From Protoeuglena noctilucae (taxonomy: Eukaryota), in assembly GCA_958009085.1 (NCBI GenBank), contig OY253675.1, positions 124,001-188,000 on the forward strand: a DNA stretch of 64,000 nucleotides, read 5' to 3'. The notes under the pieces were generated by a model. It saw only the letters and a program-made list of their open reading frames with translations, was not told the origin of the DNA and did no database searches. The translations under genes and the position numbers were made by a program. Of this stretch, positions 29,662 to 45,937 are shown in pieces. The stretch's first letter is position 1; every line of letters begins with the position of its first letter.

Positions 29662-30591
29662 TTACGCTTCCACCACGAGGTCTCTCTTGACAGTCTTTCG
29701 TCGTTTCGTTGTCGTATTAATGAGCTCGTAACTGCTTGGTAGTACGCGTACAATTTCAAAGACAGCTTTTGACACGTGTTCTGCACGCGACTTTTTGAGT
29801 CTCGGGTTTGCATCTATTACACGCACTCGGTCTCCCACATTAAAGAGCGCCCTGGCATTTGTCTCTCGTTTGAAATTTTGGTTTAGTTTGTTTTGGAGGT
29901 ATGTGATTTGATGGTAGTCCGTGGGACTTATCTCGTGGTCATCGACAAGCTTCATGACGTCATCCGGTTTCATTCCCGTTTGCTTCGAAACAGTGTCGTT
30001 ATGCGCATGGGCCACTGCTGCCAATTTTTGCCAATACGTCATGTCGTCTGGTAGTCTCGTGATACCTTCCCGTAATGTTCGAATCATTCGTTCGGCTGTC
30101 GGAGCATGCTCTACGAACTGTTGCTGAACCCCTTGCTCCAGAAGCCATGTCACGGTGTCCTTGGAATCTCCCATCGTCCACGCGGAGTCGCGGTCACACA
30201 CGATGGTCATCGGCTTCGGGCGTTGACGAGGCAACATGCTTAAGAGTCCCTTTTTTACAGACTCCTTCGTTTTGTTTTTCAGGGGATACAGGTAGACATA
30301 TTTAGAAAACACGTCGACCAAAACGAGGATATACTTCACGTCTTTCGTCTGATTCGGTTTCTCAACGTGCATGATGTCGAGCATAGCAACAGCCCAAGGG
30401 GACGTGGTCATGAAGTGACCCCCTTTCGGTTTCTCGTCTCGGGGCTTCATGACCATCCTGCGAACATTCTCTTGCCCGAGAAGGAATTCCTTTACTTGCG
30501 ACTTGCTGTATCCTTTCGAACGAACTTTGGCATACAACTTATCGATAGAAGTGTATCCCTGCTTAAAAAATGTATTGAACAACTCCTCCAT
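29662..30591 (-). CDS. Retroviral-like (rve, DDE) integrase, Polinton type
   Basis: LDIM, YILVLVDVFSKY, PLKNK, CDRD, AERMIRTL, HNDT..GMKP, FNVGDRVRV. Intact frame, no obvious chromodomain. Confidence 0.93.
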   Translation of the reverse strand: MEELFNTFFKQGYTSIDKLYAKVRSKGYSKSQVKEFLLGQENVRRMVMKPRDEKPKGGHFMTTSPWAVAMLDIMHVEKPNQTKDVKYILVLVDVFSKYVYLYPLKNKTKESVKKGLLSMLPRQRPKPMTIVCDRDSAWTMGDSKDTVTWLLEQGVQQQFVEHAPTAERMIRTLREGITRLPDDMTYWQKLAAVAHAHNDTVSKQTGMKPDDVMKLVDDHEISPTDYHQITYLQNKLNQNFKRETNARALFNVGDRVRVIDANPRLKKSRAEHVSKAVFEIVRVLPSSYELINTTTKRRKTVKRDLVVEA

Positions 30592-30667
30592 AGATGAGCT
30601 TTAAAAAACCTCAACCAAAAGGGGATACGCCCCTTGAGGACTCTTGTCCAACCGGCCTTGGCCACCC

Positions 30668-32008
30668 CTAACAAGGGGGTTTTAGGGGGCCACGCCCCCT
30701 ATTGCATGACAGGCAAGCAATCCCACAGTTTTCTTTCGTGTGACCGAGGTCGTCATCTGTGCGGTCCAGAGTCCACGTGCCCTCCTGATAGAAGTCAGCG
30801 CCGCAGTGCCTGCACCGGAATTTGTCAGCCTTCAAGAGAGCCCAGATATCTTCGGTCGTGATTGTGGTCTCTTGGTCGCGTGTCTTGTCTTGTCGCGTGT
30901 ACCCCAGAACCTTGTCCCGAATGTATGCCTTCAGGTTCAGGAGAACGGAGCTGATACCTTGGACAAGATAGACCTTATCGAAGTCTCTTGCTCGCGTGAT
31001 GGCCATGTAGAGTTCCTCGCATCCGACGAACGTAGTGCTCACACCATGGACATATAAGTTTCCGCTCGTGCGAGACCCTTGACAGCTGTGGATCGTTACC
31101 ATGTTGGACGATTCAAAGTTTTTATGAAATTCATCTACTTTAATTTTCTGGATCACGCCGTCTTGGCCTTGCAGTTCCACATAAGGGGTTTCACCCCTTT
31201 GAAACCCCGAACAATGGGGGCCTGAGGGGGCTCCGCCCCCCACCATCAAGTACTCTGCGTTGCGAATGAATTTCCCAGAAGACCTCCCAGAACTCGGTCG
31301 ATAGGTCCAAGTGTCTGGAGCAGCTATGTTCGTCCCCAACGATTGAATGCACTTGAACGGACATAGATGTAGTCCATCACGTGCGAGTGCCTCGTCCTCG
31401 GAAAGCAAGCGCTTTTGAGACAGGAACCATTCGATGCAAGCTCTCTTGTCCTTGCGTTCCACAAGCATTTCCCGTAGCTCTTTGAGTAATGGCTTCTGTG
31501 ATTCCGGTAGGGTTTTATTTTCATGCAGGTATACCCTATTTTTGAAAACGCTCTGCATGAGCATCCCGACTGCATCTCGGGAATATCGGGTGTCCTGGAC
31601 CGGCTTCAGCTGGTCGATATCGCCGGTCATGATTAGGGTGTAGTCCCGGTTCACCGCCTCCGTGGCCATTTCTCTTAATGCCGAGGTACAGAACATAAAC
31701 GCTTCCTCGAGGATAACCATATTTGCGTCAGGAGGTACGTTGCGAGTAGCCTTGCGGTTGATGACCGGGAGTTCCCACCACTTGTGCGATGTTGTGAAGT
31801 GAATGTCCAGGGGGGTTGTGTCCCCTCCAAAGTACCCCTGACAGTCCAGCTTGTTCTTATTGTTTGGACAGACGACCACGATACGCTTCTCTTGACAGTA
31901 CTTTTTGACGTAATCGACCCAGAGGCGTGTTTTTCCGGAACCGGCGTAGTGAGCTTGAATGCTCAGTCTGTTGTGTTGCTGAAGAATCTCATGGATTTGT
32001 CCCGTCAT
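30668..32008 (-). CDS. Superfamily 1 (RecD/Pif1-like) helicase with C-terminal HNH-type Zn-finger nuclease
   Basis: AGSGKT, ILEEAFM, GDIDQLKP, TIHSCQG, YMAITRAR; then CRHC..TLDRTDDDLGHTKENC..CLSCN. Confidence 0.88.
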   Translation of the reverse strand: MTGQIHEILQQHNRLSIQAHYAGSGKTRLWVDYVKKYCQEKRIVVVCPNNKNKLDCQGYFGGDTTPLDIHFTTSHKWWELPVINRKATRNVPPDANMVILEEAFMFCTSALREMATEAVNRDYTLIMTGDIDQLKPVQDTRYSRDAVGMLMQSVFKNRVYLHENKTLPESQKPLLKELREMLVERKDKRACIEWFLSQKRLLSEDEALARDGLHLCPFKCIQSLGTNIAAPDTWTYRPSSGRSSGKFIRNAEYLMVGGGAPSGPHCSGFQRGETPYVELQGQDGVIQKIKVDEFHKNFESSNMVTIHSCQGSRTSGNLYVHGVSTTFVGCEELYMAITRARDFDKVYLVQGISSVLLNLKAYIRDKVLGYTRQDKTRDQETTITTEDIWALLKADKFRCRHCGADFYQEGTWTLDRTDDDLGHTKENCGIACLSCNRGRGPLKPPC

Positions 32009-32032
32009 GAACTCCGTGTCATACTCTTGTTC

Positions 32033-34411
32033 CTAAGTGAACTCGTGGGTGATCCATTTGTTCTTCTCCTTGAATTCGGGAAGATTCGGGGGACTTATGT
32101 CCATCGGCTTTGCTTTGACTCTTCCTAACTCTGGTAGCTTGTATGAACCCAGTTTCCCGTCATACTTGATGTCTGGCCGTTCGCGGAAAAACACCGCATC
32201 TGTCTTAATGGCTACTGGTTTGTATATCAGATTGTGGATGAACGTAGCGACGTTCGCAGCTGCGAGTTCTTGAAGCACTGCCCAAACACTGTGTTTCCAT
32301 CCGTTGAGGCAAACCCTACTGTCTTCGTCATACACTATATTCAGGTCAGGGTCTCCGGCCAGTTTTAATTTCGGGTTATCCTCGATTACCTTGTATGCGC
32401 TCATGGCGTCCTTGAACAACACACCACGCTGCGCCATCGTCCTCGAACGTCCAGCCATACCTATCGCCATGTTAACGATCTTCTTGACGTCATTGACCGT
32501 CAGCGTGGTTTCCTTGATAGCATCGCCATACAGCCAATCGATGACCTCGGCGACTCCCTGAATGCGCGCTGTATACGCCGTTTTGAGTTCTCCGATGATT
32601 CTGATGGCAGGACCGTGGGCCCATGCGGCGTCGTCCCCCCTGTCGAATAATTTAGCCATTCTCTTCAGTACGCTACCGAGACATAGCGATAGTTCCTTTC
32701 GGTAATACACTTGCTCCGAGAACCAGAATAACTGAGTCTTATTGAGTTTCACAACGTACCAAGCAAGGTCATCCGCGTCTTCTATGCGCATGTCGACGCT
32801 ATAGAAGTGGTCACTCGAGCATGGCACTGGGATTTCCATTCCCTCCATCGACTTCAAGATGTATGTGTAGTGTTTTGTGGCGTCGCATTCCCAGAGGTTC
32901 TCGTCGATTCCATCACGGAGGGACTCCGAACATCGTACGATACCAAACTTTCGAAGGCGGTCGAAAGTATCAAACACGTCCTGATTCACCTCGCATCTCG
33001 TCGTAGTACAGTGTAGTCTCTTCATGAGCTTGTCCTGAGCGTTTTTGTAGTCAATTTCATGGTCGAGACTGTGTCTGGACTCGGTAATTTCACCACAGTC
33101 TACCATGGACCGCACTACTATTTTTTTGTTGTCGACATGGTGAAACATAAACTGATTCACTTGACCATTCTGTAGTCTGAGGTCATAAGGTACAGCAATA
33201 GTAGCGACATTTTTGAGGGCGCTCATTACGTCGTGAGTGTAATAGGCGCCAGGTTCAACGTTGTTCAGTTCCTGAAGACTTTCAACATGTTTCCAAGGAT
33301 TTACATGTTTTATCTTCGAAGGAGCCCATTCGATTTTCTCAGGTGCTTTTGCTCTTGGGAAGTCTATTTCAGGTACCAGGAAGTCCTCGATAGTCTTCGC
33401 GTCTATGCTCTCTGTCGCTCGTTTCGTGTGCCACACGGGACATATGTGACCATCGTGAACGATGAAAGTTAAGCGTCTGATTTCCTTGTTCTCCCTCTCT
33501 GCTTTCAGTTTGAGAACGACGTGACCAAAGATATTGAAAACCACCACATTGAACCTCTTGGCAAGTAGTTGACACCCCTCTAATAGTTTCACGGGTCCAT
33601 CAGGGAAATTCTCGTTTACCCACTTCAGATGACAGGTGATGTTTTGCTTAACCTTCTTCGAATTCGCATTCTCAATCGCACGTAGGATCTGATTTTGAAC
33701 CGAAGACTTAAAACAGCTTCCTTCCTTGAGGTCGAATACGTTGTCGGAGTCCTTGAACCCAAGGGGGTTCACGCGATTGATGTAAATGGACTTGTCCCTG
33801 GATACCGCTTGTTCGAACCATAGTTTATAATTCCGTTCATGTGGATTCACTTTATAGACAGAAACAACGTCAGTGACTACAGTGCGTGTTGGCGAGATGG
33901 TCTGCAACGTTTCAAAGAGGTCTGGGTTTGTCTTCTCGATGAGATTTTTAAACCTCTTAGCCGATTCCGTCCTGGGGTCTTTAAACTTGAATCTTTCTAT
34001 CTTGGGCGGCGGCTCCTTCACAAACATGCGATAAGGCGTATCGTTGTCCCGAATAAACCACGCATTTTCACCGCCGAGACCACGGCGAATCGTATTATTT
34101 TTCAGGTATGCCTCGAACTTTTCAAAGACATTTTTACCTCGCTTATTCTTAGACTCGACGTGCTTCTGCATCTTTCGGATAGTCGCTCGTAGGTCATCGT
34201 ATGTCTTGACTTCTTTGCCAGCTACCTTATCGATTACCATAAATTCCGCGTCAAGCTCCTCGGCAACCCATACATTATATCCGGTGTCATAAATAGTTCG
34301 TTTGCGCTGCTTCTCGTTCTTGCGTTGCCGACGTGTGTCTTTTTGTTGAGCAATTTTCTCAGCTCGCGCGACTTGCTGGCGGATCGTTCGTGGGGCATGG
34401 GCTTTGGGCAT
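32033..34411 (-). CDS. Derived family-B (protein-primed-like) DNA polymerase, in frame with the helicase
   Basis: Motif A-like CDATKHYT, motif B-like KKIVNMAIG, motif C-like AIKTDAV. Exonuclease motifs not recognised. Confidence 0.7.
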   Translation of the reverse strand: MPKAHAPRTIRQQVARAEKIAQQKDTRRQRKNEKQRKRTIYDTGYNVWVAEELDAEFMVIDKVAGKEVKTYDDLRATIRKMQKHVESKNKRGKNVFEKFEAYLKNNTIRRGLGGENAWFIRDNDTPYRMFVKEPPPKIERFKFKDPRTESAKRFKNLIEKTNPDLFETLQTISPTRTVVTDVVSVYKVNPHERNYKLWFEQAVSRDKSIYINRVNPLGFKDSDNVFDLKEGSCFKSSVQNQILRAIENANSKKVKQNITCHLKWVNENFPDGPVKLLEGCQLLAKRFNVVVFNIFGHVVLKLKAERENKEIRRLTFIVHDGHICPVWHTKRATESIDAKTIEDFLVPEIDFPRAKAPEKIEWAPSKIKHVNPWKHVESLQELNNVEPGAYYTHDVMSALKNVATIAVPYDLRLQNGQVNQFMFHHVDNKKIVVRSMVDCGEITESRHSLDHEIDYKNAQDKLMKRLHCTTTRCEVNQDVFDTFDRLRKFGIVRCSESLRDGIDENLWECDATKHYTYILKSMEGMEIPVPCSSDHFYSVDMRIEDADDLAWYVVKLNKTQLFWFSEQVYYRKELSLCLGSVLKRMAKLFDRGDDAAWAHGPAIRIIGELKTAYTARIQGVAEVIDWLYGDAIKETTLTVNDVKKIVNMAIGMAGRSRTMAQRGVLFKDAMSAYKVIEDNPKLKLAGDPDLNIVYDEDSRVCLNGWKHSVWAVLQELAAANVATFIHNLIYKPVAIKTDAVFFRERPDIKYDGKLGSYKLPELGRVKAKPMDISPPNLPEFKEKNKWITHEFT

Positions 34412-34508
34412 AATATGTTTGGAGAAAAATCTTACGGCGTTTTTGGCCGCGCCTGGAAGGGTGCCCTTTGGCCCCTATTTTTTGTCAAGCTTTTTTCTAA
34501 AAAGCTTT

Positions 34509-34832
34509 ATGGAGCTTAAGATAACCAAAGCGACAGCGAAAGGAAAGAAGTACAAAGCTGAGTTTTTACGTAGGGCGGAGCCCATCGGCCTTCGGCATGC
34601 GGCCACCTTAAAGACCGTCAACTTTGGTGCAGAAGGTTATCAGGACTATACCCAACATCATGATGTCAAACGTCGCGACGCATATCGCGCGAGACACAAA
34701 AATGACCATATTGACGACTTTATGACTCCAGGAGCACTATCCTGGTATATCCTTTGGGGTGATTCGACGAGCATGGAAAAGAATGCCAAAGCCTTTGCCA
34801 AGAAATTTAAGCTAAAACTCCTCCCCCTTTAA
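34509..34832 (+). CDS. Tlr6F-like (DUF5754) conserved PLV/virophage protein
   Basis: KKYKA..KTVNFGAEGYQDYT.HHD..RR.AY.ARH..PGALSWYILWG. Confidence 0.85.
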   Translation: MELKITKATAKGKKYKAEFLRRAEPIGLRHAATLKTVNFGAEGYQDYTQHHDVKRRDAYRARHKNDHIDDFMTPGALSWYILWGDSTSMEKNAKAFAKKFKLKLLPL

Positions 34833-35026
34833 TGCTTGGGTTTTGCGGAGCCCTTCTGTTTAGCGAGAACAGTGTTTACATAAAACTGTGCCTTCCGTCG
34901 CATGACGTCTGTATACTTGCTGTCTCTTGCCAGGACTGCTTTCGCAAATTTTTTGAGGTCAGCTTTCCCATCCTTGGTCTTAAACCCGTATTTTTTAGCA
35001 GCCGCGGTGAACGTGCCTTCCTTCAT
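34829..35026 (-). CDS. Small basic viral protein
   Basis: MKEGTFT..RRKAQFYVN, preceded by the TTTTCTAAAG motif. Confidence 0.7.
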   Translation of the reverse strand: MKEGTFTAAAKKYGFKTKDGKADLKKFAKAVLARDSKYTDVMRRKAQFYVNTVLAKQKGSAKPKH

Positions 35027-35068
35027 ATACGAATCTTTAGAAAAGATTCACCAAAGGGGCACAGCCCT

Positions 35069-38000
35069 TTAACAAAGGCGCATAATCGATATCTTCAGGC
35101 TGTTTGCTGTGTACGAGCTGTTGGTGTTTTGGAATGTTATCGTACTCCCGTACTCGACAGCCACAAATCCATCCCCACTTACTTGGTCAACTACCGCGTT
35201 TCCATTATTATTCACATACATGTATATGTAGCCGCATCCGCGACTATAAAAGTAGTTTCCTTGTACCGTCGTGAGCTCCGCACTTGCAGTAAACATGTAG
35301 TTTGCGCCTATTTCTAAGTACTGAGTAGCGGTAAAGCTATAACTGTTAGCATTCACGTTGATGTTAATCACTTGCAATGGTCCGTTTATGACTTGCATGG
35401 TGTTTGCTATGATTTGTCCCGAATTGTTGATGTGTAGATGAGTCGTCATATTCCCACTCGAGTCTTTCTTCCCGATATTAATAGCAGCAGGTGTATAAGT
35501 GCCCGACATGTACAAATTTAACTGTCCTCCTGAATCCTGACTCAACCCATATGTGTCGCCTGGACCATAGGACTTTTCCAGCATAGAAGGATTATTCGCA
35601 TAAAAGCTGACTGGCTGATGACACCCTATCCCAGACACATCCATGTTGCCACTGATAATCAAATTACCAGACCCTGTGATATTACCAGATACATCGAGAT
35701 TCCCATATACGGTAGCAAAAGACCTCACAATTAGGTCAGTGTTGCAAACTAACTCGCCTGTCAACTCCCCTCCGCTTAAAGGTAGATAACTGCCTGAACT
35801 GATTCTCGTTGACAACGAGTTCAGTTGAGATTGCACATCAGATGTGATGTTTTGACAGTATACGATATATTGCGGAACATTGATAAGGTTCGTCCATGAA
35901 ACGATGCCTGTGATGTTTCCCGATACAGACAGCGACCCTGTGATGGCGCAACCTCCTGCATTTACTCCTAAGATTTCCGAACCGCTGCTCTGGAAGCTCG
36001 CCACCTGATTACCAGCTGATTGATTATTGACCGTGAAGGCCCGGGTCGAAGACGCACACGTGATTCCTGATGCTGTATCGGAGCGCACGAATTGACTGGC
36101 GTTGAACCCGTTCAGTGTGGCTGCATCCGTGGTACTCGTAGTCGTTGTCTGGGTTGAGCTGTTGTATACTACCGTGTTTATGAGGTCAACTGTACTGTAA
36201 TCAGGAGTCCACCTATCGTTGACATAATAATAAGTGACTACAGTCAACCCAGACGATGCTGTGGGGATGGTCCGAGTGTTATTGCCTGCATTGTTCTCTT
36301 CGGTTATCACATAGGAGAACCCAGGCTGCATGATGAGCGTCTTTTGGAGGTAATTGTTAGTACTCGGCGTGGGCAACGGTAGGGTAGCAGCCATGGGAGT
36401 GCCATTGAAGGCGTATGTCAGCAAGAATGGTTGAAACGTGCTGGTTGAATACCCATTGGGGTCAGTTGACAGCGACACGGTAGACGTCTTGTCAGCGTTA
36501 TTGATTTGCACCGTCGACTGGTCCGTAGAAATATACCCGTTGATAATGAGCTTCCCTTGAGCGACCCGGAAGGTTAAAAACTGTGTGTTAATGTGTCCTG
36601 TACTCGGTATACTCACAGGTGTGAATGATGCATACCATTTGTCGGTGGAAGTATCCAGGACAAATACACTTGTGCCTCCATAAGACAAGCGGTCTTGACT
36701 CACCACGCTACCAGCTGTAGTAGCTCCCAGGTCAAAAAGCGACACACCGCTGACGACCGAACCATTCCAGGGCATGCACAAGTACATCAGCTTATTCGTC
36801 GAGTCGAACATCAATCGGCGGTTGAAACTGTACCATGTGTAGCTCAAACCGTAAGCATCGATACATGAAGTCAATTGGGAGACTGTGCCAGTCGGAGTGA
36901 ACTTTATCACCCAGCCCGATGGATATGGTGCGAAATTACTTGAGGCCGTCTTGCCTCCCACGGACACGCTTGTTTGCGATGTAGACCAGTAGCCATAAAT
37001 GTTGCCTTTGTCGTCGCACTCGATATCCATCATCGATAAATTGTTCAATGGGATTACCAGACACGTCTGCACGAATGCACCTGCAGAATTATACCAAAGC
37101 ACGACGTTGGTGTAGGGTGATGATAAATATACCGTGTGTCCCGAACTGGAATTAGTGCTGAGATTATTAATCGTATACGTCCCACCTGAGCCATTGTACA
37201 GGAGACTGACAAAGAGGTTCCCTGACGAATCTGTGGTCAGTCCGCCTATTAAGAGTCCCTCACTCGCGGCATTCAATTGAATAGGGTTAGCCATCATGGA
37301 CACTGACGACCCATTCAAGTACACAAGAGCAACATTATACCCGTACGTACCGGTATTGCTGCCATATAGTTGATTAGGGGAAGTTGTGTATTGCCCTGCA
37401 GTTGTGATGGGTATCAACACGTTTCCGTTCCATAGACATGTCTCCGCAAACCAATTGTTCTGATTGCTTACCGTCATTGTAGTGCTGACAATCTTGTTTT
37501 CCGACACGATAGCTCCGAGGTTGTTCACCGTGAGTTGGACGTAGCCATACTGCATGTCTGTGATGAATCCAGCTGTTCGAACCGAGCCGTCTTGGTTGAG
37601 TGCATCGATGTTGCCGTACTTCACGTAGAATATATACTGAATATTACCATTGGTGAGGACTTCTGCGCCGACGCAAGTGATGTAGTTATTTGTCCCCGAG
37701 CGCGTGACGAACGGCTTCCATGCCCATTGCAGAGCGCCTGCAGCGTCGAACTTGGCTATGTATGTGTCTGAATAATTCGATGTGTTGCTATTAATAGCCA
37801 CTTGGAGGCTAGTGCTTCCATTGAGCGACTGGATGTAGTTTGTTTGCGTCGAGCCTGCCGTGTTGGCGTCCAACGCGATGTACGTATTACCGCTGGAGTC
37901 GATTGCAGAACACACGATATGACCTCTGTCCCATTGGCTGCTTCCCGTGGGATACGTCATGAACAAGCCATACACCCCAGGACTAAGCACGGTGGGTACG

Positions 38001-38272
38001 GTAATGTTAGGTGAGAAATAGGAGTCTTGGGTCAAACTTAGCGTAGCTCCGTTGGTCGTTATTGTCTCCACGTCGAGCGATTGAACACCTGATAGAATCG
38101 TTCCAGTTGATAAATGTCGGATACTTGGAGCGGTCCCGTTGTCTTGGTAAGCTTGACTACTCGGAAGCCACCTGTCATACGCACTGTCGTATACCAACAC
38201 GTCTCCATTCTGTGCATTAGGATTACTTACGGTTTCTTTGAATGTCCTGTTAAAAGCACCGTTCCAACTCAT
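35069..38272 (-). CDS. Putative fibre/receptor-binding virion protein (beta-propeller + phage tail-fibre-like repeats)
   Basis: NGDVLVYD..W, DSSGNTY..IAKFD..G.LQW, DAATLNGFNASQFVRSD, YLPLSGGELTG. S/T/N-rich. Likely ATG at 38272, preceded by the upstream motif. Confidence 0.75.
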   Translation of the reverse strand: MSWNGAFNRTFKETVSNPNAQNGDVLVYDSAYDRWLPSSQAYQDNGTAPSIRHLSTGTILSGVQSLDVETITTNGATLSLTQDSYFSPNITVPTVLSPGVYGLFMTYPTGSSQWDRGHIVCSAIDSSGNTYIALDANTAGSTQTNYIQSLNGSTSLQVAINSNTSNYSDTYIAKFDAAGALQWAWKPFVTRSGTNNYITCVGAEVLTNGNIQYIFYVKYGNIDALNQDGSVRTAGFITDMQYGYVQLTVNNLGAIVSENKIVSTTMTVSNQNNWFAETCLWNGNVLIPITTAGQYTTSPNQLYGSNTGTYGYNVALVYLNGSSVSMMANPIQLNAASEGLLIGGLTTDSSGNLFVSLLYNGSGGTYTINNLSTNSSSGHTVYLSSPYTNVVLWYNSAGAFVQTCLVIPLNNLSMMDIECDDKGNIYGYWSTSQTSVSVGGKTASSNFAPYPSGWVIKFTPTGTVSQLTSCIDAYGLSYTWYSFNRRLMFDSTNKLMYLCMPWNGSVVSGVSLFDLGATTAGSVVSQDRLSYGGTSVFVLDTSTDKWYASFTPVSIPSTGHINTQFLTFRVAQGKLIINGYISTDQSTVQINNADKTSTVSLSTDPNGYSTSTFQPFLLTYAFNGTPMAATLPLPTPSTNNYLQKTLIMQPGFSYVITEENNAGNNTRTIPTASSGLTVVTYYYVNDRWTPDYSTVDLINTVVYNSSTQTTTTSTTDAATLNGFNASQFVRSDTASGITCASSTRAFTVNNQSAGNQVASFQSSGSEILGVNAGGCAITGSLSVSGNITGIVSWTNLINVPQYIVYCQNITSDVQSQLNSLSTRISSGSYLPLSGGELTGELVCNTDLIVRSFATVYGNLDVSGNITGSGNLIISGNMDVSGIGCHQPVSFYANNPSMLEKSYGPGDTYGLSQDSGGQLNLYMSGTYTPAAINIGKKDSSGNMTTHLHINNSGQIIANTMQVINGPLQVININVNANSYSFTATQYLEIGANYMFTASAELTTVQGNYFYSRGCGYIYMYVNNNGNAVVDQVSGDGFVAVEYGSTITFQNTNSSYTANSLKISIMRLC

Positions 38273-38338
38273 ACAAGCTTTTAGAAAAAGCTTAACCAAA
38301 AGTTTCAGAAAAGATGCAAACTTTTTTCTAAAAAGTTT

Positions 38339-38944
38339 ATGGAGAGTATACTCACAGACAATGTGCTACTTCAGTTCGCACAACTGAGTTATGAAAACGA
38401 CGTGCAGACCCGCGAATGGAATCGCGTTGCTGTTGATGAAGGTGGTAAGACTCAGGCATTCGTCCATCCCAAAATCCCAGACCTTGCCGTGGTGACGTTT
38501 CGAGGCACTTCAGACTTTATGGACATCGTTCTTGATATCCAGACGCTCATGGGAGTCGATTTCTCTGGGCGTTTCCAACGTAGTCTCAATTTCGCTTTTG
38601 ACATCGCCAGTAGATATAAATATGTCATCTTTGTCGGCCATAGTCTCGGAAGTCTGATAGCCGGTGTGTGTCAGTGGCAACTCTTTAAGCAAGGAAAGGC
38701 AGCGTACGCATGGATGGTCAATGCTTACGTGCCCCCAAGTATACCTGCCGATATGCTTACGTATAATAAGAATATCAAGGTCTTCTTGAATCTCATGGAC
38801 CCTGTAAGTCGTTTGACGTATTATGATGCCCAATTCCGTGCCGGTACACCAGATGCTCATTGGGTTATAAGGTCGGCAAGCCTTGCTGAGCTCATCCAAC
38901 ATGACCCCCAACGGTGGATCAATCAGGGGGCTGCGGGGCCGTAG
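38339..38944 (+). CDS. Class 3 lipase / alpha-beta hydrolase
   Basis: VVTFRGT, GHSLG nucleophile elbow, DPVS, C-terminal His. Confidence 0.88.
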   Translation: MESILTDNVLLQFAQLSYENDVQTREWNRVAVDEGGKTQAFVHPKIPDLAVVTFRGTSDFMDIVLDIQTLMGVDFSGRFQRSLNFAFDIASRYKYVIFVGHSLGSLIAGVCQWQLFKQGKAAYAWMVNAYVPPSIPADMLTYNKNIKVFLNLMDPVSRLTYYDAQFRAGTPDAHWVIRSASLAELIQHDPQRWINQGAAGP

Positions 38945-39042
38945 GCTGGTTGGACGTTCGTCCCCCCTTGAACCCCCGCCACTTTATCGCGCGTTAGGGG
39001 TAGAGGGGACAAAGTCCCTCTAGTTTTTTTAAAAGCTCATAT

Positions 39043-40319
39043 ATGTCGACGTCCGTCATGAGCACCGCGCCCCTGGCCTTCAAAGCCCGCAAGCTGATGG
39101 ACAACCTTGCTCGCAAGACCGTCCGTATTTACCCCGACACCTCTGGTACCAAGACTGGTGGCCAGCAGGTCGTCTTTACTCTTCCCGTGGACCACATCCT
39201 GGACCTCAAGACGCTCAAGGTTTGGTAAAATTTGACGAATGCAGACGTAACAGTAGATAATAATTACATTGGCCCCATGTCCAGTTATGCATACATAAAA
39301 AATATCTCTATTTCCGTGAATGGTCGTACGGTGACTCAGGCCGATAACTGGGGTGCCATTGAGGCTTATCTTGACCAGATGCGTCGAGGTGAAATCGAAC
39401 TTTCCTCCGATGGAGCAAGTTATGCTCCAGATATTAGCATAGGTACCTCACAGTACGTTGCGGTAAATGGATTCCCAGACACGTGGCTCTCTGGAGAGTT
39501 CATGAGGTACATGCCGACAAGTATGTTTAAAGACACAAAGATTACGCTGACTCTTGCTGACCCGATTTCTGTTGCTTTTACTGCGACTAATGGTATAGAA
39601 CCTGGTTATGCTGTTATGCCTACCCCTGCAAAAATAAAGCTAGTGCTGGTACCGTAAGTTACACGGGTCAGTGGATATCTTGTGATGCTCTGATGTTTAG
39701 CGACTCAAGTTACACAGAGGAAATCTTGGATGCCATTGAGCACGACGCGAATGGTCTGTCTATTCCATACTCCAACATCATTATCCAGCCTTCCGACACT
39801 GTCACCGGTGGGACGCTAACTTTCTCCAAGAGGTACACGTCTGATTCCGTTAACAAGCTTCTTGCGGTGATGAAAGCTGCGGATGGTTCTAACCCACTTT
39901 CCAACTCCGGACCTGGGAGTGTTACTGCGTTGCAGACATCCACTTAGTATTTTAAGATTGGTGGATACCGTCTCAATGACCAGGACATCAACGGTTTTGA
40001 GGCATTCACGACCTTTAAGAACACATTCGGCTGTAAGCGTCCTACGAACATGTTGGGTCAGTGGGATTCTCCTGCTTTCTGTATGTCCACGGACTTGTGT
40101 CTGCCTGGACTCGTCTCTGGATATAACACGTACCGCGCTGCTGCAGACATCAGTCTGTTTGCAAGTGGGCTGACAGTACCATCTGGTGGCGGAATCGTGT
40201 ATGTAGCCGCGTTCGTGACCTCCAGGTGTGTCGTCGACAAGAATACGGGTCTGAACCAAATCAATCAGGGACTCCGTCCCTATAACCCTGGAGGGGCCTT
40301 CGGCCCCATAGTTTGTTAG
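39043..40319 (+). pseudogene. Major capsid protein (PLV double jelly-roll type), disrupted
   Basis: One ~425-codon gene rebuilt across TAA 39226, a frameshift at ~39635 and TAG 39945. VVFTLP..LDLKTL, IKNISISVNG, LSIPY, YFKIGG, LVSGYNT resemble PLV MCPs. Confidence 0.78.
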
Positions 40320-40391
40320 GCGGCTGAAAGCCGTAGGGGCTACGCCCCCGTAGGCCGTCGCGGCGGCGCCGCTCTTTTTCTAAAGTTAATT

Positions 40392-40838
40392 ATGGGGATA
40401 GAGACAGGCCTGTTCACGAAAATACCGCTCGTATCCGAAAACAAACAAAACCAAGCTTACAGCCACTTTGGGTTTAATACTCCTGAACTCCAGGGAGTTC
40501 TCAACCGCAACCATGTCGAGTGGAAACAGCCGTTGCGAGGGCTTGCTGGGAGTGCTGCAGAGCGTGCGTGGCGCGTGTGTGATGGTATGCGTCCTTGGAA
40601 ACCCGCTCCTGGTGGCTGGCTGAACGACATTGTTATTAGAAGTGGCCCTAAGCGAGCGACGCGTGTTGTTCCCAACGCATCTGCCTTTGGCTTACAGCCT
40701 CCAAAGTATATCATTGCCCCTGCTCCAAACAACCCCCTGTATACGCAGACGCAAGCATCGGGTGCCATTTACCCAGCCCAATCGAAAACCGGAACTCCGT
40801 ATGTGCGCGAGAAGGCGGGTGGTGTAGAACCCTTCTAG
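40392..40838 (+). CDS. Viral hypothetical protein (148 aa)
   Basis: ATG preceded by TTTTCTAAAG. Confidence 0.7.
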   Translation: MGIETGLFTKIPLVSENKQNQAYSHFGFNTPELQGVLNRNHVEWKQPLRGLAGSAAERAWRVCDGMRPWKPAPGGWLNDIVIRSGPKRATRVVPNASAFGLQPPKYIIAPAPNNPLYTQTQASGAIYPAQSKTGTPYVREKAGGVEPF

Positions 40839-40933
40839 GGGACTAAGGGACCTACGTCCCGACGGCCGAAGGCCTCCCCTTACCCCTGACGGCGGCGCAG
40901 CTGCCCTTTGATGAAACTTTTCTAAAGTTTCTT

Positions 40934-41407
40934 ATGGATATAGACGCCAGTGCGCTGAGTCTCGAATGGGAGACTAAGCTTAAGTCGTCAGCACCTCAGA
41001 ATATCCAAGCTTTCTTGACGGAAGCAGAAAAGCTTTACAGAGCATCTACCGACCCATCCCGTGGGACTGCTCTGGCCCTGTGCATTCAGACCGCCCTTGA
41101 TGACGAAGATGGAATCGCTCACCCGGCACACGAAGACGCGATGAAAGTCGTCCAAGTTGCAAAAACCAAAATCGATTCCTTTTATGACCACATGGGCGTG
41201 ATTAAGGTGCTCGCCAAGCTCGTTCGAAAGTCTCTTCACCGCGATAGATGGCTCGACGTTTTGCAGCTTGCCATAAAGAAGCTCGTAGATTCCAACCCCG
41301 GTCTGACCAAGACCGTCTTGGACGCTCTGAAAAATATAGTGCTCACAGACCTCGAGAGCATCGCGTTATCTGCCCTAAAACGAGCCGGTACGTTTCTATG
41401 CCATTAA
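40934..41407 (+). CDS. Viral hypothetical helical protein (157 aa)
   Basis: ATG preceded by TTTTCTAAAG. Confidence 0.7.
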   Translation: MDIDASALSLEWETKLKSSAPQNIQAFLTEAEKLYRASTDPSRGTALALCIQTALDDEDGIAHPAHEDAMKVVQVAKTKIDSFYDHMGVIKVLAKLVRKSLHRDRWLDVLQLAIKKLVDSNPGLTKTVLDALKNIVLTDLESIALSALKRAGTFLCH

Positions 41408-41540
41408 GACTCACGGAACAAGAGTGACCGTTGAAATTATCCGCGGAGTAGTCATGATGATTCTGTTTAACGTTCACCCGTTAGGAGCATTGCATATATA
41501 GGGGGCCCTTTTTGCCGCTTCTTTTTTTAAAAGCTCATGT

Positions 41541-41837
41541 ATGGTGACACTCACGAGCGATGGCGATGTCGTTGCAAACCTCAAGGTCGTGAACGGTAAG
41601 CTGGTGGACACTGACACAGGGGGCAACGCCCCCTCAGACCCCCATGGCGGCGCCCTCGTTGTAGATGTTCTCGATGTGCTTGACCTCGTTATTGCAGAGC
41701 GTGAGCTCAATGGAGTCACGGAACCACCTGTGTTGAGTCTTGCAAAAGGGCACCGCTCTGTAGACTTTAAATATGTTCCCGGGATCAACGCTGAGAAACT
41801 TTTGAAGGTCGTGGAGTTGCTTGACAAACTCGCATAA
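41541..41837 (+). CDS. Viral hypothetical protein (98 aa)
   Basis: ATG preceded by TTTTTTAAAAG. Confidence 0.65.
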   Translation: MVTLTSDGDVVANLKVVNGKLVDTDTGGNAPSDPHGGALVVDVLDVLDLVIAERELNGVTEPPVLSLAKGHRSVDFKYVPGINAEKLLKVVELLDKLA

Positions 41838-41957
41838 GGGCTCCGAGGACGTACGTCCAACTGGCCTTCGGCCCCTTGTTTTTTTTATTTAATTAAATTG
41901 TTTATTGTTAATTTTATTGTTTTTTTAATTTAATTGTTTTTATTTATTTAATTTAAT

Positions 41958-42242
41958 TTGAATTGGACCCGTGATATCGTCGTTCATGCTAATTTTTGCA
42001 ATCGGAGTTATTCTTCTGTCCCAGGCGGCGGTGTGAATCGTGGAAACGTTCTTATAGAACTACCTATAAGCGACCAACAGGACGGACTCGTGTACAATGG
42101 AAGAGAGTCCGATGCTCACATTATCATCGATGAGGAAATTAACGGTCTTTTGGCACCACAGATATATATCACAGACGGAGACGGAAACATAATCACAGCA
42201 AAACTCCCTTGGACCCTGACGCTGAATGTTAGTACCTATTAG
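41958..42242 (+). pseudogene. C-terminal fragment of putative minor capsid (penton) protein
   Basis: NVLIELPI..LVY..IYITDGDG..PWTLTL matches the single jelly-roll penton C-terminal pattern. No ATG; abuts an A/T tract. Confidence 0.55.
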
Positions 42243-42367
42243 GGAAGGGGTTGCACCCCTTTGAAACCCCGCAGGCCTTCGGCCCCAATTTGGTTGAGGC
42301 GGCTGAAAGCCGTAGGGGCTACGCCCCCGTAGGCCAATCGCACTGCTTCTTTTTTAAAGGTCATAAT

Positions 42368-43135
42368 ATGCCACGTATAGCACCAAACATAGTAAGACCT
42401 GAAGCAGGAAGGGATGAGACTGAACGCGAACTTAACAGCCATGACAAAGCGGGATTACACCGACTTTATATCAAATTGAGAGACGAATATCATCACACAT
42501 TTGTACATTTAGAGTCAGCACAGTCTGCCACAACGGTCCTTACTGATTTAGCGGATGCGCGGCTTATATCGATGGGAGCTGAAGAAATACATAACGTAAA
42601 AGATAGATTTATGATACGAGTATCTCAACTAATACAGAGTGAGTATAATTACAACAACGGTCGAAAAGGAGCTCATAAAAGAATGTACCGGGACCCATGG
42701 ACGGGTGATGAACGAGAAGCACTTTACTGCATGGCTATTGACATAACTTCGAATAAGTTTGATAGAAGAGTACACACCCGAATCAATGCTGCTGAAGAAG
42801 CAGCATCAAACCGACTTCCTGACCCAGAACACGAAATCCCCGAACCAGACCGCAGACCGGAAGCGAGCGAGACTCAAGTACATGAGCCGGTAGACCCTAT
42901 ACCAAACGTTAGAGACCCAGCTCTCGAACCAATAGCCGAAGGCCAATCTGGGGCCTCGGGGCTTCGCTTGGTCTCAGATTCTTCCGCACAAACAGCAAGC
43001 CAACAAGCGAGGGTGATTGCTGTGAACGCATTGGCTGGAAACATTATGTTCGTAAACAATCCGCTTGCACAAATCCCAGCACTTCTGAGAAGCAGGCAGC
43101 GAATTCGATACGAAAATTTACTTGGTAACTATTAA
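42368..43135 (+). CDS. Viral hypothetical protein with C-terminal QIPALL..YENLLG motif (A)
   Basis: ATG at 42368 after the duplicated upstream cassette. Confidence 0.75.
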   Translation: MPRIAPNIVRPEAGRDETERELNSHDKAGLHRLYIKLRDEYHHTFVHLESAQSATTVLTDLADARLISMGAEEIHNVKDRFMIRVSQLIQSEYNYNNGRKGAHKRMYRDPWTGDEREALYCMAIDITSNKFDRRVHTRINAAEEAASNRLPDPEHEIPEPDRRPEASETQVHEPVDPIPNVRDPALEPIAEGQSGASGLRLVSDSSAQTASQQARVIAVNALAGNIMFVNNPLAQIPALLRSRQRIRYENLLGNY

Positions 43136-43317
43136 GGAAGGGGTAAGGGACGTACTTCCCGACGGCCTACGGCCACCCCTTTGAAACCCCCCAGAAGGGG
43201 CAGCACTACGTGCATCGCGGCTTCGCCGCTGCCCCATTTTTGGTTGAGGCGGCTGAAAGCCGTAGGGGCTACGCCCCCGTAGGCCAATCGCACTGCTTCA
43301 TTTTTAAAGGTCATCAT

Positions 43318-44127
43318 ATGTTAGGATACACAGTAGAAACGTCCCTTACTACGTCCGACGTAAAAGTGATACACCACTTTGTAAAAAACCTTGATTTACC
43401 TCTGGATCAGCCAGGAAAGTGGCTGATCATAGCATTGGATATCCGCAAAATGTTTTCTATTAACTTGGACCAGTTTGAATCTATTATGTTGAATCGCGAG
43501 ATTCAGCGACTGGGTCAACTTTTAGTATCTTCCAGAAATTCCAAAAACCCAAAAAAAATCGTAATTGATGTGATTTATTCGAATCCATTAAAGCCAGATG
43601 AAACGAGCTTGCAATCTAGGGTCATGACGCATTACTATGCGCTTGATCCAGACGCAAAGTTCTTTAGCGCTGATGTTGAGAGAGCCATTACGACATTCGA
43701 TGACGCAAATATTGATATCCATACCAATCCGCTATTCCAACCTCAGCCAGGAGATAATCCAGGTGATACGGCAAGTGAGTACATTGACAATTTGCTCCGA
43801 CAAGGCGAAACTTCGAAACCTGATGGAAGCCAACCGGATGAACCAAGTCCTGAACAACTCGCGGGGGGCGTTGCCCCCCAACCCCCAACAGGGGGCACAG
43901 GGCAAAGTGGCGATGCGGCTACAGGAGGCCCCGAAGGCCTCCCAACGACAGGTACAGGTACAGGGGGCCAGACGAATGGGGAGCTCGGGGGGGCGGCGCC
44001 CGGAGTTCAAGGGGGCTCTGCCCCTTTATACAATATTAATTTGCCGCCACCTGGTATGACTCAAATCCCCGCTCTTTTGATGAGTCGCCGTAAGATTCAT
44101 TATGAAAACCTGTTGGGGTTCTACTAA
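43318..44127 (+). CDS. Viral hypothetical protein with C-terminal QIPALL..YENLLG motif (B)
   Basis: ATG at 43318 after the duplicated upstream cassette. Confidence 0.75.
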   Translation: MLGYTVETSLTTSDVKVIHHFVKNLDLPLDQPGKWLIIALDIRKMFSINLDQFESIMLNREIQRLGQLLVSSRNSKNPKKIVIDVIYSNPLKPDETSLQSRVMTHYYALDPDAKFFSADVERAITTFDDANIDIHTNPLFQPQPGDNPGDTASEYIDNLLRQGETSKPDGSQPDEPSPEQLAGGVAPQPPTGGTGQSGDAATGGPEGLPTTGTGTGGQTNGELGGAAPGVQGGSAPLYNINLPPPGMTQIPALLMSRRKIHYENLLGFY

Positions 44128-44230
44128 GAAAGGGCGCTGCCCTTTCTAAACCTGACGGTATGGAGGTGGCCGAATTCCCCTTTTTATCGCCTTGATGTGA
44201 TTACGATTTTTGTTTTGTAGCATCTTGTAT

Positions 44231-44953
44231 ATGCACAAGATAACGGGAGACTTGGCCATTAAAAGAATCCCTGATGATGTCGAAGACGCTCGTAAAGCTC
44301 CCGAAGGACTGCCAGCCATTGCTAAGGACAACCAGCAGTTATTCGGGTACTTTGTGGCCGGCATTGGATGCGGTAAGACGACTTTTCTGCTACGATTGCT
44401 CGAGAAGTATTTAAAAACACACTCGTTCGATTATGTCTTTTGGTGTAGTCCTACGAGTACGCGCGATAAGAAAGTACGATCTGTCCTCGGAAAGGCGCCC
44501 GCGGGGGTTCAAATAGTCTACGATACCGATTTTCCATTCACCGAAATCGAACAGCTCATCGATGAGAAGCTGGAGGAATACGACCTCACGCTGAAGTACA
44601 TCCCCGTGTATAGGAAATATCTCCGTTTGTATAAGTCAGTAAAGCACGACTCCGAAGAAGAAGAAATCCTCGAACTCTTCAGCGATGACGAGCTTGAGCT
44701 TCTTAATCACTTCGAATTCGAACCTCCGACCAAGTAGAGGAGCATGGTTAATATTTTCGCGCTGTGGAGATGCGCGAATCCCAAAATCAAAAAGGCCATG
44801 GCTGAGACGATGTGTGGGCAGTACCTGACACCGGATAAATTCCTTGAACTATGGAACACCGCAACCAAGGATGATATTCATGACGCTTTTGTGGGAATCC
44901 TTCAGTCACCAGAAGGCGAACGATTCCGAAAAAACCTCAACGAAAGCTTTTGA
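44231..44953 (+). pseudogene. A32/FtsK-like packaging ATPase, disrupted
   Basis: Walker A AGIGCGKTT, FDYVFWCSPT, C-terminal ERFRKNL. In-frame TAG at 44735 where the Walker B/RH segment should be. Confidence 0.78.
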
Positions 44954-44973
44954 AAAAAGCTTGCAAAATGCCC

Positions 44974-45399
44974 TTAAAAGTAGTCTACGAGCTTCCTCGT
45001 GTTCCCAGTACGACGAGACTCCTGAATCGCCTCGCGCACCTCGGTCTCGCGCATCGTGCGTTCTTGGGGTGGAGCTTCTTGGACATATTTCGAGGATACC
45101 GTCTTGATATTGTAAAGACGTTCCAGCAAAGCTTTCTCTTTCAGCTCTAGCTCCTTTTGCTTGACTTCGAGTTCCAGGTTCTGGAGGTCTTTTTCTTTCT
45201 GCTTCACTGACTTCAGTACAGTCTCATGCTGAAGGCGCTCCTCCTTGCGTTGGGTTTGAACTTCACGGGCCTTTTTTAGGTTCTCCAATCGCTTAGAAAT
45301 CGCCACAGGGGGCGCAGGAGCCGTGGTTTCTTGCTCTTGTCCGGGGGTTGGGGTGGAAAGTTCAGGTTCAGGCTCCGAGACAGGTTTCTTGAGGACCAT
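44974..45399 (-). CDS. Coiled-coil viral protein (RLENLKKARE)
   Basis: 141-aa ATG-started ORF, K/E-rich. Confidence 0.7.
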   Translation of the reverse strand: MVLKKPVSEPEPELSTPTPGQEQETTAPAPPVAISKRLENLKKAREVQTQRKEERLQHETVLKSVKQKEKDLQNLELEVKQKELELKEKALLERLYNIKTVSSKYVQEAPPQERTMRETEVREAIQESRRTGNTRKLVDYF

Positions 45400-45423
45400 T
45401 TATATACATGCAAACAAAATAAT

Positions 45424-45840
45424 TCAGATGAGAACGCGGAGAATCACGGCAAAAGCGGCGTGCGTGGCAGAATACGACGCGCCTGTCATATCTGTAATCG
45501 TGAACGTCATGTTCTTGCTTGTGAACGGATATACGGGGATAGGTGCTGTGGGTTGAGAGGCAGCGCCGGAAATAACGTTAGACATATACCCGGTAAGAGG
45601 GTCGAAACTATGGTACAGCTGTAAATCATTTGTGGTAAGCAGGGCGTCGTTTGGCATATTGCAGGTGTTTTCAACCATAAGTCCAAACGGCTTGCCGCTC
45701 ACGGATTCCAGGTGAGGGATGTCGAGATGCACTACTGTACTACTCGAGTTTGCAGGGAATCGAACGATGATACGGAGGGTATGCGTGTGCCTGTCTACTG
45801 TAGGCGTGGGAGCTATCGGCTGTTGCTGAATTGCTGACAT
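45424..45840 (-). CDS. Small beta-rich viral protein, possibly a minor structural jelly-roll
   Basis: Alternating beta-strand pattern, MTFTITDMTG near the C-terminus, upstream TTTTCTAAAG. Confidence 0.6.
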   Translation of the reverse strand: MSAIQQQPIAPTPTVDRHTHTLRIIVRFPANSSSTVVHLDIPHLESVSGKPFGLMVENTCNMPNDALLTTNDLQLYHSFDPLTGYMSNVISGAASQPTAPIPVYPFTSKNMTFTITDMTGASYSATHAAFAVILRVLI

Positions 45841-45937
45841 ATATAACTTTAGAAAAGAAGCTGCGCGATTGGCCTAACAAACTAAGGGGCCGAAGGCCCC
45901 AGTGGGAGAGAAAAACGCTGTAAAGGATTGATGAACT

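Follow-up and report, generated by a model that had tools for sequence, protein, structure and literature searches.

A 64,000-nucleotide (nt) stretch of Protoeuglena noctilucae DNA (GCA_958009085.1, contig OY253675.1, positions 124,001-188,000; hereafter the window, whose own positions are used as coordinates) contains an integrated element of 19.3 kb, bounded by terminal inverted repeats (TIRs), which carries a family of very short GC-rich hairpins both between and inside its genes. The element forms a sharp island of 47% GC in flanking DNA of 68% GC overall (range 64-72%) and represents a polinton-like or virophage-like virus whose integrated copy is decaying. Besides the genes listed below, it encodes a 1067-amino-acid (aa) open reading frame (ORF) on the - strand, a protein with a weak class-3 lipase match and several small ORFs, which are designated here by o-numbers.

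27667..46950, integrated element, 19.3 kb, 47% GC, bounded by the TIRs and carrying the hairpin family
27667-28226 and 46391-46950, TIRs, 560 nt each, 100% complementary in the tool output
29665-30591, - strand, rve integrase (profile match)
30671-32008, - strand, SF1 helicase with a weak endonuclease-VII/HNH-like tail (profile match)
32033-32035, in-frame stop between the primase-like and helicase parts, both parts being fused in relatives
32036-34411, - strand, primase-like ORF of 792 aa, one ORF with the helicase in relatives
34509-34829, + strand, DUF5754/Tlr6F protein (Pfam match)
39043-40319, capsid-like gene (MCP), broken by two in-frame stops and one frameshift
44231-44953, packaging-ATPase-like gene, from which about 61 aa of relatives are missing, including the VVDD stretch

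None of the lesions that mark this copy as decaying, that is the stops, the frameshift and the ATPase deletion, is located at a hairpin.

The basic unit of the hairpin family consists of a 3-nt loop on a perfect G/C stem of 4-9 bp, 11-19 nt in all, and such units are joined through linkers of 1-4 nt into recurrent modules of 25-60 nt with a GC content of 66%, as compared with 47% for the element. In the core of the element (28230-46380), 12 all-G/C stems of at least 5 bp with a 3-nt loop were counted, about 37-fold the 0.32 +/- 0.56 (maximum 2) of 100 dinucleotide shuffles; with stems of at least 4 bp, the count is 22 versus 3.1. About 45 kb of cellular flanks showed no enrichment of the longer class (13 versus 19.3 in shuffled sequence). 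Because GC-rich patches alone might yield such stems, a second control shuffled only the 1074 nt of GC-rich modules, 500 times. Triloop stems of at least 5 bp were again in excess (23 versus 2.5), a count reached by 0/500 shuffles, and stems of at least 4 bp with a 4-nt loop were not (10 versus 8.2, reached by 152/500). Since triloops are enriched and 4-nt loops are not, the signal is specifically one of hairpins with 3-nt loops. The folding energy of whole module stretches, weakly better than that of shuffles (z -0.6 to -2.7), was not used as evidence; the signal consists of many short perfect hairpins rather than of one large fold. Rfam covariance models gave 0 matches at gathering score between 27600 and 47000.

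An earlier note on this DNA had described GC-rich mini-palindromes at many gene ends and within reading frames, and this observation is confirmed. By direct reading and hairpin scan, every site which it listed is GC-rich hairpin sequence, with all coordinates at gene ends and inside ORFs holding and the in-ORF site at 42935-42973 (stem 5, loop 7) being the weakest, and the observed density is never attained in shuffled sequence. Counted over the whole window, the element has 6 sites of GGCCTTCGGCC or its complement, with 1 more outside; for GGGGC-N3-GCCCC the numbers are 8 and 3, and for CCCCTTTGAAACCCC 3 and 0, respectively. Every outside match to these three motifs belongs to a terminal-repeat remnant of viral origin at 14.9-15.3 kb.

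The loops are biased in sequence as well as in length. The triloops are of the form GNA/TNC in 29/52 cases in the element (22/45 distinct stem-plus-loop types), as compared with 12/166 in the cellular flanks and a chance expectation of 1/8. C-GNA-G mini-hairpins are unusually stable as DNA, which is used here as a lead only. When the element triloops are read on the + strand, T-N-C is found 20 times and G-N-A 9 times, small numbers that probably include some chance stems; as the T-N-C excess occurs in both the - strand and the + strand gene blocks, the bias follows the genome strand and not transcription.

Several modules recur. M1, AAGGGGT-N3-ACCCCTTTGAAACCCC, follows the stop codon in both o94 and o255 and is found inside the helicase gene as well, on the same genome strand throughout, so that it is antisense in the - strand helicase gene and lies in + strand intergenic regions otherwise. 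This match of the helicase-internal M1 to the units behind two stop codons bears out the earlier proposal of one repeated family between and inside genes. M2, GGAC-N4-GTCC-AAC-N-GGCC-N3-GGCC-CCCC, is a two-hairpin unit with 5 copies (30636, 38965 in reverse, 40846, 41845 and 43146), in which stems and linker are conserved and the loops variable; GGCC-TTC-GGCC and GGCC-GAA-GGCC are both found within otherwise co-oriented M2 units. A covariance model derived from the five copies scores these training copies, by construction, at 37-42 bits, and its next-best matches of about 16-20 bits fall only on other element modules, the TIRs or remnant sites at 15205, 51182 and 51350. M3, the 34-nt unit GGCTGAAAGCCGTAGGGGCTACGCCCCCGTAGGC, belongs to a cassette with four homologous copies: those upstream of o148, o255 and o269 contain it, and the one upstream of o138 does not, TTAGGC of the frame being directly followed there by CAATCGC. 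The filled sites are bounded by TAGGC...TAGGC (AGGC in two), which, judged from these letters, is a possible target duplication. A fourth recurrent module is the pair GGCC-N3-GGCC/ATC/GGGC-N3-GCCC. Modules are also nested: at 43149-43178 an M2 unit takes the place of the 3-nt M1 loop (42240-42270 compared with 43133-43192), and at 40846-40879 M2 stands between GGGGA and TCCCC arms.

Hairpins are concentrated between genes: the 1579 nt of intergenic sequence hold 8.87 per kb and the 16572 nt of coding sequence 0.48 per kb (18-fold), with up to six hairpins stacked behind a single gene.

27862..27895, mirrored at 46722-46755, two-hairpin unit in the TIR (GGCC-GTA-GGCC, ATC, GGGC-TTC-GCCC), with weak M2-model matches at 27864 and 46726
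28686..28710, GGCCTTCGGCC in the o80/o85 divergent region, beyond the range of the earlier note
30620..30701, helicase 3'-end cluster with GGGGATACGCCCC, M2 (30636-30668), CCCCTAACAAGGGG and TAGGGGGCCACGCCCCCTA (stem 8), preceding the integrase promoter
35050..35068, hairpin AAAGGGGCACAGCCCTTT, following the stop of the 1067-aa gene (- strand) at a distance of 2 nt
38922..39022, lipase-stop cluster with reverse M2 (38935-38965) and GGGAC-AAA-GTCCC, preceding the MCP promoter
40262..40378, MCP 3'-end and intergenic cluster with AGGGAC-TCC-GTCCCT, GGGGCC-TTC-GGCCCC, M3 GGCTGAAAGCCGTAGGGGCTACGCCCCCGTAGGC and GCGGCGGCGCCGC
40839..40908, cluster directly behind the o148 stop, with M2 (40846-40879) nested in GGGGA/TCCCC arms
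41838..41876, M2 directly behind the o98 stop (sequence reading and M2 model)
42243..42340, cluster behind the o94 stop with M1 (AAGGGGT-TGC-ACCCCTTTGAAACCCC), GGCCTTCGGCC and M3
43136..43290, cluster behind the o255 stop with M1 holding a 30-nt M2 as loop (43146-43178), GGGGCAGC..GCTGCCCC with inner hairpins, and M3
44127..44147, hairpin AGAAAGGGC-GCT-GCCCTTTCT, stem 9, whose first base is the final one of the o269 stop codon
45841..45906, GGGGCC-GAA-GGCCCC in the o138/o128 divergent promoter region, the 'empty-site' cassette (reverse strand), no M3

Among tandem junctions on the + strand, 7/8 hold a module starting 0-35 nt from the stop, the junction from o157 to o98 being the one without; on the - strand this applies to 2/6, and the remaining four intergenic regions there are at most 24 nt long. 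Modules are further found in 2/4 divergent promoter regions (28695 and 45886) and at 0/3 convergent gene ends. Overlapping hairpins supply the last codons of the lipase, MCP and helicase genes; the last hairpin of the cluster at 30620..30701 encodes the helicase C-terminus ..GRGPLKPPC, where relatives end in ..ACNRKGTKSP. The two-hairpin unit of the TIR is of the same type as an insert which, in other copies of the virus, resides within the helicase ORF and encodes GGRSPDGLRP.

The motif TTTTYTAAA has 13 matches between 29052 and 45856 on both strands (for example at 34493, 38324, 40376 and 40918), and in 11/13 its first base lies 16-19 nt upstream of an ATG, which is about 7-10 nt from the end of the motif; the variant at o269 differs in one base. 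The motif is similar to the late promoters of TCTA type borrowed by virophages from giant viruses. A passage of the virophage literature names Sputnik and mavirus as users of late promoters. Upstream of o148, o255, o269 and o138 the hairpins and this motif together form a common homologous cassette of 70-110 nt.

Inside genes, the hairpins are maintained in frame at the following sites.

31183..31240, gene on the - strand, helicase module of 58 nt, M1 AAGGGGT-TTC-ACCCCTTTGAAACCCC plus GGGGGC-TCC-GCCCCC, encoding the 20-residue GGGAPSGPHCSGFQRGETPY
31808..31832, GGGG-N6-CCCC in the helicase gene, encoding FGGDTTPLD, where relatives have FEDDSID or FKDESID, 2 aa shorter
32605..32645, GC-rich palindromic segment with TGGGCCCA in the primase-like gene, encoding GDDAAWAHGPA
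34572..34604, + strand, two-hairpin segment of Tlr6F (GGGC-GGA-GCCC, ATC, GGCCTTCGGC), encoding about R21-A32
41617..41662, + strand, hairpin AGGGGGC-AAC-GCCCCCT, stem 7, in o98, encoding GGNAPSDP
43854..44025, + strand, G/P/A/T-rich stretch of o269 with five hairpins (GGGGGGC-GTT-GCCCCCC, CCCCCAACAGGGGG, GGAGGCCCCGAAGGCCTCC, GGGCGGCGCCC and GGGGC-TCT-GCCCC)

Whether such segments are gained or lost can be followed in near-identical copies of the virus. Proteins were compared with their clusters, made up of near-identical proteins from other contigs (the primase-helicase cluster has 12 members, 10 of which cover the helicase site), and DNA was compared with contigs of three DNA runs (X1, X3 and X5) of two studies, which represent one organism and marine metagenomes; as the same contig sizes recur across runs, the runs are not independent genomes. 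At the helicase site, GGGAPSGPHCSGFQRGETPY is present in the protein of the window only, and 9/10 members read SNDGS[H/F]. On the DNA level, the 58 nt of the window correspond to 16 nt (SNDGS) in the other copies, a net difference of +42, with the joint possibly off by one. The M1 architecture of this segment is that of the units behind the o94 and o255 stops. The claim of real insertions inside ORFs is thus upheld by comparison with close relatives, since homologues are found without the segments and in-frame modules come and go at other sites too; for the helicase, the segment is missing from relatives as predicted, and the event is a replacement and no clean insertion.

Similar differences are found along the element. 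Between genes, the other copies skip 77 nt at 30621-30697 (30620 being joined to 30698) and have 'AC' in place of 57 nt at 40319-40375, and one metagenome copy skips 108 nt in the 38922..39022 region. Conversely, at 31381 and 32631 the alignments have loose ends where other copies carry extra M2-type and GGCC/GGGGC-pair modules and the window none, the extra letters translating exactly to GGRSPDGLRP and RPTGLRPP of the relatives. At the corresponding helicase ALARDG site, 5 members have GGRSPDGLRP (reading ALGGRSPDGLRPRDG) and 4, including that of the window, do not; taken together with the FGGDTTPLD site, where the DNA of other copies shows small gaps (31815-31831), all four combinations of presence and absence are found, therefore indicating recombination or recurrent change. 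The primase-like site at 32605-32645 exists in three forms, a short one (5 aa less), one with the M2-encoded ERPTGLRPP, and GDDAAWAHGPA of the window, and at the RCSESL site of the same protein an extra MGEG[S/G] is present in 5/6 members. For o148, 5 members with 97-99% protein identity display two small indels, and each of the four possible combinations is represented. The o269 relative P0290 (identity 86% by BLASTP and 89% in the alignment) is without the 7 residues QGGSAPL, which hold the hairpin at 44012-44024, and has GGNAP where o269 of the window has GGVAP; this protein comparison would match an inverted loop (AAC versus GTT), a flip suggested by one residue. No presence/absence difference was seen for GGNAPSDP of o98, the only other cluster member having the hairpin too, and the o128 cluster members show no indel. 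A comparison of o255 with o269 as paralogues was abandoned, these being too diverged at 25% identity to show insertions. Modules are thus gained, lost and replaced at a high rate, and probably also flipped, between virus copies that are otherwise 85-99% identical.

For Tlr6F, the idea of an insertion is consistent with the data in that the protein is about 8 residues longer than the nearest of 27 aligned homologues, between strands 2 and 3; the clean insertion for which the earlier note proposed to look did not emerge, as loop length varies across the family and a near-identical copy without the segment was not found, the protein having no other member in its 90% cluster. The homologues derive from a search of 1.84 billion representatives with 797 hits at E <= 0.001, the 27 being aligned from the best 150 listed and mostly near-full-length. 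The Pfam DUF5754 match stretches 60 residues over 48 profile positions. In an AlphaFold2 model calculated on this alignment (mean pLDDT 93.2), residues 21-30 form the only weak block (mean 67), which is the module-coded loop between the strands 13-20 and 33-41. The segment is made up of units of the family type and is likely an insertion in a tolerant surface loop.

Two larger rearrangements distinguish copies of the element. In other copies of the same runs, an 11.5-kb internal deletion joins the primase-like gene to the ATPase region (32766/44319, with AGTTTG between), and the protein P0009 starts in this junction. Between o98 and o94 (41845-42110), 801 other letters take the place of 264 nt of the window, which include an AT-rich low-complexity run at 41880-41960.

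Outside the element, modules of the family are found at only two places in the window, both virus-derived. At 14680-15440, two tandem terminal-repeat-like copies share GACGCCTGGAAC and CTAAGGATTACATAT with the TIR and contain the hairpins GGCCGAAGG and GGGGCGTAGCCCC; their letters suggest solo TIRs left behind in cellular DNA by a related element. At 50880-52440 a related element of higher GC content is represented by a truncated 5' part, which has homology to 28200-28900, with a 206-aa ORF (51101-51718, - strand) that reads GGPKVSGLCPTP twice, in frame, from a repeated 36-37-nt module at 51176-51212 and 51344-51380; this ORF has no other member in its 90% cluster. Beyond the window, 80 Tlr6F-encoding contigs found in IMG/VR with one homologue as query (1.28 Mb; 23-56% GC for those printed) contain 6 all-G/C triloop stems of at least 5 bp in total, and no contig has three. 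The hairpin family is a trait of this virus lineage and not of Tlr6F-bearing viruses generally. The exact M3 pattern has 0 matches in IMG/VR, where no relative of the helicase or of the MCP fragment was detected either; 51 pattern matches for the lipase in JGI metagenome contigs included none that was confirmed, and megablast of 38300-46400 against phage records gave none. The pattern GGCCTTCGGCC-N(0-30)-GGGGCNNNGCCCC recovered 7 IMG/VR loci, which, as they are neither hairpin-rich nor related by tblastn to 26 protein pieces of the element, were treated as chance or phage terminators.

These observations are probably best explained by a lineage-specific family of very short selfish, mobile or unstable DNA palindromes in a small integrating double-stranded DNA virus. 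The specificity for 3-nt loops, the GNA/TNC bias and the indications of flipping (TTC versus GAA loops, GTT versus AAC) point to a process on the DNA level. Spread would then occur as single-stranded hairpins form during replication or repair and are copied to new sites via template switching or a transposition-like nick-and-copy step. Selection would subsequently filter which copies persist: behind stop codons, where the few nucleotides ahead of the next TTTTYTAAA promoter-like motif are non-essential, and inside genes, where survivors would be those with a net length that is a multiple of three and a location in surface loops. G/C-only copies would be read as Gly/Pro/Ala/Arg-rich loops, their survival in frame being aided by the fact that G/C-only sequence holds no stop codons.

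A more specific variant, which we regard as improbable, is a mini-transposon system of single-stranded DNA comparable to that of repetitive extragenic palindromes (REPs) and their associated transposases (RAYTs), in which GNA hairpins exposed at replication would be nicked and copied by a viral nuclease, inserting into hairpin loops and behind stops and flipping; the candidate nuclease would be the HNH/endonuclease-VII-like tail fused to the SF1 helicase. If true, such a system would as a side effect diversify protein loops and generate terminator-promoter cassettes in the virus.

The proposal of selfish palindromes has to face several points. The insertion event was never directly observed, and the copies are all endogenous or of unknown state and apparently from one organism, so that some differences between them could stem from the loss of ancestral hairpins by deletion, from gene conversion or from changes after integration. 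At the helicase site a replacement is seen rather than a clean insertion with target duplication, and the candidate direct repeat, found at one site only with a length of 4-5 nt, could be chance or microhomology. A Pfam scan of 22 ORFs (E <= 0.01) recognised no transposase besides the rve integrase. The o148 indels are seen at the protein level, where a hairpin nature is not shown, and the loop flip in o269 depends on one amino acid. Finally, the occupation of 7/8 tandem + strand junctions behind stops is equally expected of a terminator.

This last point leads to the alternative that the hairpins are functional signals of transcript 3' ends, as in the 'hairpin rule' of giant viruses, with the in-ORF and promoter-side copies as by-products, which by analogy is conceivable though rather unlikely as the principal explanation. 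Their position 0-35 nt from the stop in 7/8 + strand tandem junctions (2/6 on the - strand), followed by TTTTYTAAA 16-19 nt upstream of the ATG in 11/13 matches, the 18 times higher intergenic than coding density and the homologous hairpin-plus-promoter cassette common to four genes would all fit such a role. Virophage and transpoviron genes are flanked by terminator hairpins and late promoters of the helper virus according to excerpts of PMC7031253, and hairpin-dependent mRNA maturation is described in excerpts of PMC4402537. However, modules of 77 nt and 57 nt are missing in near-identical copies; hairpins are present in 2/4 divergent promoter regions, where no transcripts end, and absent from all 3 convergent ends and from the junction of o157 to o98; they occur in both orientations, with M1 antisense in the helicase gene; up to six are stacked behind one gene; and the loop bias, in small numbers, keeps its strand whatever the orientation of the genes. 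The 80 other Tlr6F-encoding contigs without such hairpins likewise argue against a general signal. Modules that are missing from some copies, lie on the promoter side and take both orientations fit selfish DNA better than an obligatory signal. In one metatranscriptome run, a few short contigs match the element (for example 38607-38809, 44348-44675 and 45147-45508), but contigs of this kind reveal neither ends nor strand, and they may be DNA. A secondary use of the hairpins as transcript-end or insulator signals, as in giant viruses and virophages, is plausible, and both explanations can hold jointly if gene-end hairpins became unstable and proliferated, by analogy with what excerpts of a preprint propose for a giant virus.

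Two further explanations place the origin of the GC-rich segments in their surroundings or in composition. A GC-rich cell could have added them after integration, by end-joining filler or GC-biased repair, which would make them scars of endogenisation. The GC content of the modules (66%) is close to that of the flanks (68%) and not to that of the element (47%), the copies are all integrated or of unknown state with the window copy decaying, and the helicase replacement is filler-like; yet the cellular flanks show neither hairpin enrichment nor GNA/TNC bias (12/166), modules outside the element reside only in virus-derived remnants, and the same module types occur in the diverged element fragments at 50.9-52.4 kb and 14.7-15.4 kb. 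Moreover, the in-ORF modules preserve the frame, which true decay lesions do not, and the modules follow a defined grammar and recur at non-homologous sites, which together make post-integration scars very improbable. That no element exists at all, and that ordinary low-complexity Gly/Pro linkers meet compositional chance in GC-rich spacers, is practically negligible: GC-rich sequence folds well anyway, as the z values of whole stretches between -0.6 and -2.7 illustrate, but 0/500 within-module shuffles reach the triloop count, identical modules are found in coding and non-coding DNA, and the loops show a bias in length and in sequence.

Bacteria and organelles are known to harbour short selfish palindromes, whose mode of spread is unsolved. 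Rickettsia palindromic elements (RPEs) are elements of about 100-150 bp in bacterial chromosomes, with sequence families of their own and presence/absence polymorphism between relatives. The likeness, compared by description only, is that of a palindromic repeat in frame in ORFs and missing from orthologues, as at the helicase, primase-like, o148 and o269 sites; the present family differs in its 11-19-nt G/C-only units, 25-60-nt modules and 3-nt loops, and in being located in a eukaryote-type integrating virus. Closest in size, nesting and behaviour are the palindromes of organelles, namely of Volvox mitochondrial and plastid DNA, the GC clusters of yeast mitochondria and hairpin elements of sponges and fungi, with which the family shares hairpins of 10-100 nt, loops of 3-5 nt, many similar copies and nested copies. 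Rapid gain and loss, an orientation that is not fixed with respect to genes and persistence only at harmless places are further features in common with RPEs and these organelle palindromes. The yeast GC clusters occur in frame in var1. While those palindromes reside in organelle genomes, the carrier here, integrated in DNA of 68% GC, is equipped with TIRs, an rve integrase, a capsid gene and a packaging ATPase. Volvox palindromes are stated in an excerpt to avoid ORFs; unlike these, several copies here are in frame in genes, with pure G/C stems in a background of 47% GC and GNA/TNC loops.

In bacteria, REPs and their bacterial interspersed mosaic elements (BIMEs) are GC-rich imperfect palindromes of 20-40 nt which, according to excerpts of PMC3733652, cluster behind genes in both orientations and form hairpins of single-stranded DNA. 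GC-rich palindromes behind genes in both orientations are also found here, and GTAG, the REP tag, recurs in modules (CCGTAGGGGCTACGCCCCCGTAGG), which may simply follow from GTA loops beside G stems. On the other hand, REP/BIME systems are bacterial, whereas host and carrier are eukaryote-type here, and no Pfam family of RAYT/IS200-like (Y1) transposases was found among the 22 element ORFs at E <= 0.01.

Among viruses, the giant-virus hairpin rule and its counterparts in virophages and transpovirons share with the present family the palindromes behind stops, the helper-type promoter that follows and the small virus (excerpts of PMC7031253 and PMC4402537). In contrast to that rule, the hairpins here are short, G/C-only, several per gene end, also promoter-side and inside ORFs, and dispensable between copies. 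Repeat families that proliferate in viral genomes and are partly hairpin-based are further represented by MITEs of pandoravirus (transposable elements of the miniature inverted-repeat type), the M1/M2 arrays of pithovirus and the hairpin arrays of Sissivirus. Such repeats measure about 140 nt and more or form tandem arrays, and the genomes concerned have sizes from hundreds of kb to Mb, whereas here dispersed mini-hairpins, some of them in frame within genes, occupy a 19-kb genome; the Sissivirus preprint proposes that such hairpins can proliferate. With regard to MITEs, each unit here is itself palindromic, TAGGC/TAGGC borders one 34-nt unit and the helicase event is a replacement; as an autonomous transposon for the modules, the 22 ORFs offer only the rve integrase and the HNH-like tail, neither of which shares ends with the modules. 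In literature searches, with subscription-only papers and bioRxiv supplements outside their reach, neither a dispersed mini-hairpin family nor in-frame copies were reported for polinton-like viruses or virophages; the accessible part of a Halocafeteria preprint on endogenous virophages describes only terminal palindromes at TIRs.

In the present system such behaviour, with nesting, rapid gain and loss and in-frame residence of mini-palindromes, is seen in a 19-kb integrating virus of the polinton-like/virophage kind, which has very little spare DNA and whose near-identical copies record individual events. The mechanism becomes tractable because many such copies allow a base-by-base comparison of filled and empty sites. 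The modules provide a route by which small viruses gain Gly/Pro-rich surface loops and C-terminal extensions, and they may show how terminator-plus-promoter cassettes arise and move. As they break alignments and vary the length of hallmark genes such as helicase and Tlr6F, caution is advisable when classifying such endogenous viruses.

Some minor features of the region can be added. CGCC borders both ends of the element (AGTTAGTGAAAGCC... and its complement; 27660-27667 and 46950-46958), which, from the letters, is a possible 4-bp target duplication by the rve integrase. A CAT/ATG-rich run at 28953-29005 gives a C-terminal HHHHHH in o85 on one strand and DDDDDD in o159 on the other, and proteins of the o159 cluster have between 132 and 159 aa. 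On either side of the element, the same motif matches occur at equal spacing (25950/50310 and 26104/50460; 25938-26105 and 50298-50461), which indicates that the cellular flanks hold a repeated segment.

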